From: Escherichia coli | GTDB lineage: Bacteria; Pseudomonadota; Gammaproteobacteria; Enterobacterales; Enterobacteriaceae | Direction: 5' to 3' (one strand) | Assembly (NCBI RefSeq): GCF_003334405.1 | Contig: NZ_QOWM01000003.1 | Length of the DNA: 64,000 bases | Shown: one piece after another, positions 49,572-50,147 of the stretch | Layout: the number at the start of each line of letters is the position of its first letter | Numbering within the stretch: the first letter of the stretch is position 1 | The notes under the pieces: model-generated | Seen by the model: the letters and a program-made list of their open reading frames with translations, nothing else | Database searches by the model: none | Told to the model about the DNA's origin: nothing | Translations under genes and position numbers: made by a program

Positions 49572-50147
49572 ATGGAATACTTTGATATGCGTAAAATGTC
49601 GGTGAATCTGTGGCGAAATGCTGCCGGTGAAACGCGCGAAATTTGCACGTTCCCACCGGCAAAACGTGATTTTTACTGGCGTGCCAGCATTGCATCCATC
49701 GCGGCGAATGGGGAGTTTTCTTTGTTTCCCGGCATGGAAAGGATAGTGACGTTGCTGGAAGGCGGCGAGATGCTCCTTGAAAGCGCAGACCGCTTTAACC
49801 ATACCTTAAAACCGTTCCAGCCTTTTGCCTTTGCAGCGGACCAGGTGGTAAAAGCGAAACTGACGGCAGGGCAGATGTCGATGGATTTCAACATCATGAC
49901 ACGCCTGGATGTCTGTAAGGCGAAAGTCAGAATTGCCGAACGTACGTTTACTACCTTTGGCTCACGCGGCGGGGTGGTGTTTGTGATTAACGGGGCGTGG
50001 CAACTGGGCGATAAATTGCTCACTACCGACCAGGGCGCGTGCTGGTTCGATGGCAGGCACACCCTGCGGCTTTTACAACCGCAAGGTAAACTGTTGTTCA
50101 GTGAAATCAACTGGCTCGCTGGTCATTCGCCGGATCAAGTTCAGTAA
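49572..50147 (+). CDS. ves: HutD-family protein Ves
   Basis: ORF trimmed to ATG 49572 (191 aa, [11 protein letters not shown]). Confidence 0.85.

Follow-up and report, generated by a model that had tools for sequence, protein, structure and literature searches.

The window analysed here is a stretch of 64,000 nucleotides from Escherichia coli (contig NZ_QOWM01000003.1 of assembly GCF_003334405.1). The segment under study carries the genes astE-spy-ves><cho-nadE-osmE in the order typical of E. coli K-12, and the order spy, ves, cho, nadE is annotated in a database record that is 100% identical to it. In the RefSeq annotation of this identical E. coli chromosome (locus L001), ves occupies positions 3173-3748 and cho positions 3708-4595, which correspond to the window coordinates given in Table 1. 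The two genes converge and share their 3' ends: ves stops at TAA (50145-50147, + strand), and cho stops at TGA (50107-50109, - strand; tca on the + strand). The shared nucleotides encode Ves residues 180-191 followed by TAA on one strand and Cho residues 284-295 followed by TGA on the other, and they also include, for each gene, 2 nt of the codon before these. A 41-bp overlap of the ves and cho 3' ends had been reported in a preliminary description made from the sequence alone, and both the stop codons and the RefSeq coordinates agreed with it; the figure of 13 codons per gene given there is right if the stop is counted (12 sense codons plus the stop). The overlap is real and was already known, as it is present in the RefSeq annotations of E. 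coli.

The published positions for MG1655 (NC_000913.3) were converted to window positions as 1874509 - x, with the + strand of the window corresponding to the - strand of MG1655; this relation was obtained from two Term-seq landmark sequences.

Table 1. Features at and around the ves/cho junction, in window coordinates
Feature	Position	Strand	Source
ves CDS (191 aa, HutD family)	49572..50147	+	RefSeq annotation of identical chromosome
cho CDS (295 aa, GTG start)	50107..50994	-	RefSeq annotation of identical chromosome
Stretch common to ves and cho, 41 nt	50107..50147	both	sequence and RefSeq
10-nt spacer TCGCCGGATC between Ves H185 and Cho L286 (last conserved codons)	50127..50136		alignment of tails
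LexA box CACTGGATAGATAACCAGCA, CTG-N10-CAG, 13 nt before the cho GTG start	51027..51008	-	direct reading of sequence
cho promoter TTGTCA-15-TTTAAT	-35 51070..51065, -10 51049..51044	-	sequence, matches genomic SELEX
Premature Rho-dependent termination zone	50725..50970	- (cho strand)	PMC7815308 supplementary files 1-3
Putative rut-like C-rich, G-poor tract, 135-270 nt past the ves stop, C/G 1.8-2.0	50280..50420	+	composition
Putative rut-like C-rich, G-poor tract, 50-190 nt past the cho stop, C/G 1.4-1.75	50060..49920	-	composition
12-bp hairpin, -21.7 kcal/mol, z -3.2, 20-45 nt past the cho stop, inside ves	50062..50087	-
Bidirectional intrinsic terminator, spy-ves	49389..49449	both	scan, folds, Term-seq
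RNase III duplex, p19 capture, inside ves, 100-120 nt past the cho stop	49985..50007		PMC7373196 Table S3
RNase III duplex, p19 capture, inside ves, ~390-410 nt past the cho stop	49697..49720		PMC7373196 Table S3
RNase III duplex, p19 capture, inside cho, ~170-190 nt past the ves stop	50314..50336		PMC7373196 Table S3

The region was detected in all 5426 of the 5426 complete E. coli genomes with an 1801-nt query centred on the overlap, and at least 80% of this query was held by 5425 of them. The 81-nt junction was present in 5405 E. coli genomes and identical in 3891. In the divergent junction copies that were inspected (97.5% and 92.6% identity, the latter being the most divergent copy checked), the annotated overlap was still 41 nt.

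Protein families and C-terminal tails

Cho matched the NCBIfam equivalog 'excinuclease Cho' with 579.7 bits (cut-off 367), and Ves matched its own NCBIfam equivalog with 427.4 bits (cut-off 292) and Pfam HutD with E = 1.8e-44. A Pfam search with Cho gave only a sub-threshold GIY-YIG match (E = 0.1), and NCBIfam was used in its place. Both reading frames are thus genuine conserved protein genes according to NCBIfam and Pfam, and they share 3' nucleotides on opposite strands. Since the HutD domain covers Ves residues 8-175, the overlap lies outside this domain. The NCBIfam Cho profile spans residues 1-287 of 295, and therefore the last 8 residues of Cho fall outside the family profile. The NCBIfam Ves model extends over all 191 residues.

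The ends of both proteins were compared with those of their orthologues. In most genera, Ves ended in GH* (...WLxGH*), whereas the E. coli protein ended in GHSPDQVQ*. The conserved C-terminal end of Cho, ...YEIxEL, was followed by 1-11 variable residues across genera. Both tails varied between genera and were missing in many of them. The spacer stretch between the last conserved codons of the two genes was 9 nt longer in E. coli than in Enterobacter and Leclercia; judging from the aligned tails, E. coli ves would end in GGT CAT TAA, the GH-stop of other genera, if CGCCGGATC were deleted. [quoted passage not shown] Relative to the orthologues, the tails and the 9-nt length difference are those of an overlap that originated by stop shift or 3' extension.

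Variation of the junction among species

One genome per species was scanned with Cho, which yielded 80 loci. The 41-nt overlap was found at 15 of these loci, all labelled Escherichia or Citrobacter. The most frequent length was 23 nt, which was found in Enterobacter and relatives (16 loci). Overlaps of 45 nt (2 loci), 32 nt (5), 15 nt (3), 10 nt (1) and 7 nt (6, including L034) were also present, and in Kosakonia the two stops were interlocked in a 4-nt overlap, TTAA (5 loci). One locus had a small gap between cho and ves, and four had a gap of 28-48 nt with a strong hairpin in it. Thus, an overlap of at least 4 nt was present in 53 of the 58 adjacent cho-ves pairs. At 3 loci, cho and ves were about 1.8 kb apart, and at the remaining 19, including those of Salmonella, Klebsiella and Raoultella, ves was not near cho; in these three genera, cho converged directly on spy.

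The distance between the conserved EI codons of Cho and the conserved GH codons of Ves was shortest in Enterobacter and Leclercia (10 nt), longer in Kosakonia and Phytobacter (14-15 nt) and longest in Escherichia and Citrobacter (19 nt). The junction thus carries indels between genera.

Chance and selection in the overlap

In the relative phase of ves and cho, codon position 1 of one gene lies opposite codon position 1 of the other. Among the 45 long open reading frames of the window, antisense stops in this phase occurred at 0.053 per codon, with a mean open run of 19 codons. With the conserved cores 10 nt apart, the chance that both tails (9 codons in Cho and 6 codons in Ves) stay open is about 0.947^15 = 0.44. 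Therefore, the overlap is no more than chance gives, and tight packing alone predicts an overlap.

Substitutions were analysed in 14 sequences from Escherichia and Citrobacter that share the 41-nt layout. Mean pairwise divergence was 0.172 in the overlap, 0.236 in the cho-only part and 0.200 in the ves-only part. The candidate view of the overlap as a specially constrained region was rejected, as its divergence fell inside the range found for 41-nt windows along both genes (0.094-0.347). The most conserved class of positions in the overlap (0.097) corresponded to Cho codon position 3 and Ves position 2, and the most variable class (0.265) corresponded to Cho codon position 2 and Ves position 3. 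Because position 2 of Cho was more variable than position 3, the substitutions track the Ves frame along most of the overlap, which makes the Cho tail a passenger. At the opposite end of the overlap, the conserved ATTAYTGAACT, which encodes I-x-E-L of Cho, sets the ...VQ* ending of Ves. The substitution pattern gives no sign of special dual-coding selection. Weak selection on the arrangement may nevertheless act, because the 41-nt overlap is fixed in E. coli and most Citrobacter and diverges slightly less than the flanks do on average.

Promoter of cho and control by LexA

The preliminary description had treated cho as an SOS-induced gene. Its place in the LexA regulon was borne out both by the LexA box in the sequence (Table 1) and by the literature, in which cho (ydjQ) is counted with the genes under LexA control whose SOS box is known (PMC6590174). 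In Salmonella, ydjQ is given as 3.33-fold in the transcriptomic table of an SOS-regulon study that screened for DNA-damage-responsive loci, and it was too weak for gfp fluorescence in the same study (PMC8072944). RpoD genomic SELEX placed one promoter in the nadE-cho spacer and a second one in the spy-ves spacer (PMC3946193); the former agrees with the TTGTCA-15-TTTAAT found in the window. Consensus searches were of little use at this locus. A strict search with the 20-mer LexA consensus (up to 3 mismatches) gave no match, a loose CTGT-N8-ACAG search with 2 mismatches gave an uninformative 278 matches, and a sigma-70 consensus scan, which is too strict for such weak promoters, gave no promoter in 48700-52300.

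The motif CTG-N10-CAG was found about 30 nt upstream of cho codon 1 at all 77 of the 77 loci with enough upstream sequence, that is, at 58/58 loci with ves and at 19/19 loci without it. Since the motif is kept at both kinds of locus, cho is under SOS control independently of a downstream ves.

Termination signals around the junction

No terminator-like site was found between 49404 and 50667 by a consensus terminator scan of both strands, and RNA folds downstream of each stop gave no hairpin followed by a U tract. A GC-rich stem-loop with A and U tracts, as expected of a bidirectional terminator, was likewise absent between the two stops. A published Term-seq data set (PMC7815308; MG1655, LB and M63) contained no 3' end near the junction for either gene, which low expression may explain. 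The hairpin 20-45 nt past the cho stop (Table 1) was considered as a terminator of cho and rejected, since a U tract is lacking and Term-seq gave no 3' end at this place; the hairpin is confined to Escherichia.

The first intrinsic terminator ahead of the cho-strand transcript is the bidirectional element between spy and ves. On the + strand, it comprises a hairpin of -40.8 kcal/mol with a U tract, and a Term-seq 3' end was found at 49449; on the - strand, a hairpin of -28.1 kcal/mol is followed by UUUUUU. In Salmonella and Klebsiella, the same terminator element lies directly after the cho stop. As the first terminator on the cho strand lies beyond ves, the E. coli ves gene sits, on the opposite strand, in the effective 3' untranslated region of cho.

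Evidence for the action of Rho was found on the cho strand. In MG1655 grown in LB and M63, a Term-seq 3' end was mapped 24 nt into cho (window 50970) with a Rho score of 3.5, and a Rho termination region peaked 270 nt into cho (window 50725) with a Rho score of 3.87 (PMC7815308). An independent rifampicin time series also flagged cho, in its 5' part, with a 'Termination' event (PMC10349824). Therefore, Rho ends much of the transcription of the cho strand early. Sensitivity to bicyclomycin, as reflected in the published Rho scores, was seen on the cho strand, and nothing was reported for the ves strand. Downstream of the stops, C-rich, G-poor tracts were present (Table 1), and their composition is what suggests a rut-like function.

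Complementary RNA and stress responses at the locus

Small duplexes produced by RNase III and captured with p19 are perfectly paired, 21-22 nt long and present at no less than 1 RPM on each strand (PMC7373196). At the locus, such duplexes lie on both sides of the overlap. Therefore, transcripts cross the overlap, and both strands are transcribed 100-400 nt beyond it in unstressed cells.

It had been proposed from the sequence that induction of cho by the SOS response could generate antisense RNA across the ves 3' end. The LexA box at cho, the lack of a terminator at the junction and the dsRNA on both sides speak for such RNA; however, the complementary RNA extends over hundreds of nucleotides rather than 41, and it is present without SOS induction. 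The opposite outcome, in which the transcripts end before the overlap on both strands, does not describe the locus, as dsRNA was found beyond the overlap, although the cho strand partly approaches this state through the action of Rho. The proposal of SOS-driven antisense control fared less well: Rho trims the cho strand, the LexA motif is independent of ves, and cho was not differentially expressed when ves rose 151-fold. A literature search found no SOS transcriptome reporting ves. SOS induction of cho should raise the level of antisense RNA over ves, and any effect of SOS on Ves would probably be small. The antisense interpretation is thus partly supported, being mechanistically plausible and generic, and a regulatory role of the overlap is unlikely.

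The rise in ves comes from a strand-aware RNA-seq experiment on palladium stress, in which spy was up 6447-fold and ves 151-fold; at 10 min, cho was absent from the differentially expressed genes (PMC8533678). Thus, a large rise in transcription converging on cho left cho mRNA without measurable change at 10 min. Since the rise of ves amounted to about 2% of that of spy, much of the apparent stress induction of ves would be read-through from spy.

Discussion

The 41-nt overlap is quite probably a neutral by-product of two convergent genes that lack intergenic space, and not a dedicated regulatory device. The conserved cores of the two proteins (Cho ...YEIxEL and Ves ...WLxGH) end only 10 nt apart, and each frame extends into the conserved C-terminal codons of its partner up to the next chance stop, with each tail riding as a passenger on the constrained sequence of the partner. 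In the ancestor of Escherichia and Citrobacter, a 9-nt indel and stop-codon shifts may have given rise to the present layout; the order of these mutations is one that we infer. As there is no space for a terminator, neither transcript would end at the junction, and each would extend some hundreds of nucleotides into the partner gene. Termination would be achieved mainly by Rho, which presumably acts on the ves strand as well, and the spy terminator beyond ves, being bidirectional, would stop any cho-strand transcript that had got so far. The expected result is low-level complementary RNA processed by RNase III, as at most convergent operons of E. coli.

Among the other explanations, it is unlikely that SOS-induced read-through from cho lowers Ves in an excludon-like manner, through collision of RNA polymerases, cleavage by RNase III or interference with the ves 3' end. 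Such an effect would be in keeping with the LexA box and promoter upstream of cho, with the lack of a - strand terminator before the element at 49403-49380, with the duplexes inside ves and with the rut-like tract that starts only 50 nt past the cho stop. However, Rho cuts the cho strand early, and cho is weak even if induced, as the 3.3-fold value and the undetectable gfp signal in Salmonella illustrate. Moreover, the LexA motif is still there at the 19 of 80 loci without ves beside cho, the length of the overlap varies between genera, Ves has no known functional connection with DNA repair, and the literature search found no SOS data set with a change in ves. The reverse polarity, in which envelope stress would cause read-through from spy and the resulting ves-strand RNA, antisense to cho, would damp the Cho nuclease, seems improbable. 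The palladium data fit a read-through of about 2%, spy and ves are co-oriented with only one terminator between them, no + strand terminator follows the ves stop, and a duplex lies inside cho, but cho was not differentially expressed in the very same strand-aware experiment. In addition, ves may have its own stress-responsive promoter, the rut-like tract within cho probably limits read-through, and Salmonella and Klebsiella have a bidirectional terminator between spy and cho. A combination of both directions can also be considered, in which spy-ves><cho would be an antisense module, specific to Escherichia and Citrobacter, that arbitrates between stresses, with spy-to-ves read-through and SOS-driven cho in reciprocal antagonism. 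This module would act via collision of RNA polymerases and cleavage by RNase III of a duplex of several hundred nucleotides, with Rho setting the threshold. It is a rather improbable proposal; if true, it would couple the output of a DNA-repair nuclease to envelope stress and the output of Ves to DNA damage.

The remaining explanations concern the shared DNA itself. That both 12-residue tails are needed, so that the shared DNA is under double purifying selection, is very improbable. The 41-nt length is fixed in E. coli and most Citrobacter, the divergence in the overlap is slightly lower than in the flanks, and the NCBIfam Ves model covers the whole protein; however, the tails differ freely between genera and are missing in many, within the overlap the second codon positions of Cho are more variable than the third, and Pfam HutD and the Cho profile stop at residues 175 and 287, respectively. 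An error of annotation or sequencing, by which one of the 3' ends would be wrong and no true overlap would exist, deserves mention since many long annotated overlaps are misannotations (PMC2478687), but the chance of it is negligible here. Stop codons are unambiguous, unlike start codons, the two open frames recur unchanged in thousands of independently assembled genomes, both proteins score far above the curated equivalog cut-offs, and 41 nt is below the 60-nt range in which artefacts dominate (PMC2478687).

The neutral origin preferred here agrees with what is known of convergent gene pairs. Convergent overlaps arise by loss or shift of stops and by 3' extension, and real long overlaps are found only in the convergent orientation (Pallejà et al., PMC2478687); their origin via stop-codon loss or shift is attributed there to Rogozin 2002, here taken as cited in PMC2478687. 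In E. coli, 75 convergent overlapping gene pairs have been counted (Huvet & Stumpf 2014, PMC4161906). Like other members of this class, ves and cho are conserved genes whose 3' ends came to be shared via stop shifts and a small indel, their overlap is kept among close relatives only, and the pair is one of about 75 in K-12. They differ from the class in nothing essential, although 41 nt is longish; it is below the unusual class of more than 60 nt.

The same holds for transcription. Complementary 3' ends were found in 276 of 370 convergent E. coli operons (~75%), with a mean overlap of 286 nt (Conway 2014, PMC4161252). As in the 3'-overlap dsRNA described by Conway 2014 and Huang 2020 (PMC7373196), the ves/cho pair has no efficient terminator, its RNAs overlap by hundreds of nucleotides, and RNase III duplexes come from both genes; however, many of the operons of Conway 2014 have a leaky terminator, whereas ves/cho has none and no intergenic DNA. 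At the convergent pairs studied by Wang et al. (bioRxiv 10.1101/2022.10.23.513370), bidirectional terminators are associated with programmed collisions of RNA polymerases, and head-on encounters are possible at ves/cho as well, but E. coli lacks the stem-loop between the two gene ends that defines such pairs. Hairpins of this kind separate cho from ves in four other lineages (L047, L053, L055 and L067) and cho from spy in Salmonella and Klebsiella.

Regulatory antisense systems resemble the locus less closely. In an excludon, as the concept is cited in PMC4161252, a long antisense transcript of one operon represses the opposite neighbour. The LexA-controlled cho promoter could in principle give an RNA spanning all of ves. 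Duplexes, whichever promoter they stem from, were captured 100-410 nt inside ves and 170-190 nt inside cho. However, ves and cho have no known functional opposition, and the cho strand is Rho-limited. Inverse expression was not observed; the available data concern the reverse direction only, in which ves rose 151-fold and cho was not differential. Nor is the arrangement conserved together with its regulatory input, as the LexA motif is present at 19/19 loci without ves and the overlap length varies. The SOS-linked antisense pairs symE/SymR, tisB/IstR and dinQ/AgrB use dedicated small RNAs, which target the 5' end or the ribosome-binding site of a toxin mRNA. As at ves/cho, one strand has a promoter under LexA control and the other gives a complementary RNA, but ves and cho are ordinary protein genes abutting at their 3' ends. 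It may be concluded that ves/cho is an ordinary member of the convergent-overlap classes and that the consequences for transcription are like those at most convergent operons.

As such, the pair provides a worked example of how an overlap originates, by a 9-nt indel and stop drift, with tails riding on the ends of the partner genes, and the deletion of ves in Salmonella and Klebsiella restores the shared bidirectional terminator. If cross-talk under SOS or envelope stress were shown, the locus would add to the natural examples in which two stress regulons interfere with each other through convergent transcription under promoter control.

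Spacing between cho and ves in other lineages

Among the 80 cho loci of the one-genome-per-species scan, cho and ves were separated by 28-48 nt in four lineages (Enterobacter sp. ENT03, Pseudescherichia vulneris and relatives), and a strong hairpin (-30 kcal/mol) was inserted into this gap. No obvious U tracts were found at the hairpin in the four loci; it may function as a bidirectional terminator or else represent a mobile palindrome. At three further loci, L072, L073 and L080 (Enterobacter sp. Ag1, Cedecea davisae and Enterobacter sp. Cy-643), ves was located approximately 1.8 kb from cho and was still convergent with it; therefore, other DNA is inserted between the two genes in these lineages.

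The spy terminator is compound and bidirectional. At the Salmonella and Klebsiella loci, this element was found directly 3' of the cho stop, with no intervening ves. The Salmonella Cho tail (…NTDCRQS*) still resembles a leftover of the ves-overlap DNA, which suggests that ves was lost by deletion there rather than gained by insertion in E. coli.

Features of the ves-cho region and of related loci (window coordinates, or locus-internal coordinates where a locus is named)
Feature	Position	Strand	Property
spy terminator	49389-49449		
12-bp hairpin	50062-50087	-	20-45 nt beyond cho stop; Escherichia only
Rho termination region	50725	-	~270 nt into cho
Rho-dependent 3' end	50970	-	24 nt into cho
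Rfam ES036 (CssrF) sRNA match	51102-51144	-	42.9 bits
Rfam ES036 (CssrF) sRNA match	58248-58290	-	55.5 bits
Gap hairpin, L047	3868-3915		
Gap hairpin, L053	3868-3930		
Gap hairpin, L055			
Gap hairpin, L067			
spy-terminator element, L006 (Salmonella/Klebsiella set)	3883-3945		
spy-terminator element, L069 (same set)	3866-3935		

Natural disruptions and probable repeats

The ves-cho segment was found to be disrupted in two E. coli genomes, NZ_CP027701.1 and NZ_CM149872.1. One of them, a K-12-like strain, carries an IS1A insertion inside the segment; in the other, only 56% of the query was matched, and the gene beside ves was annotated merely as "endonuclease". These disruptions are rare and natural and could be used as test strains.

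Both ES036 matches exceeded the Rfam gathering score of 37.6. The one nearer cho is situated in the DNA separating nadE from the cho promoter and adjoins a REP-like palindrome (gccggatgcggcgtgaacgcc). Both are probably REP-derived repeats and not independent sRNA genes.

Transcription of ves and cho

Under palladium stress, spy was upregulated 6447-fold and ves 151-fold, as determined by RNA-seq (PMC8533678). Read-through of the spy terminator at about 2% may account for most of this apparent stress inducibility of ves (49369-50147).

Owing to G-U pairs, the hairpin past the cho stop is more stable in the cho-strand RNA (-21.7 kcal/mol) than in the ves-strand RNA (-15.7 kcal/mol). A possible role for it is stabilisation of a trimmed 3' end of cho; no mapped 3' end backing such a terminus was found at the hairpin on this strand.

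Within cho, published Term-seq and bicyclomycin data (PMC7815308) place both a Rho-dependent 3' end and a Rho termination region. Taken together, these sites imply that cho, a GTG-initiated SOS gene, is terminated prematurely in unstressed cells. Such premature Rho termination could add a level of regulation to Cho expression.
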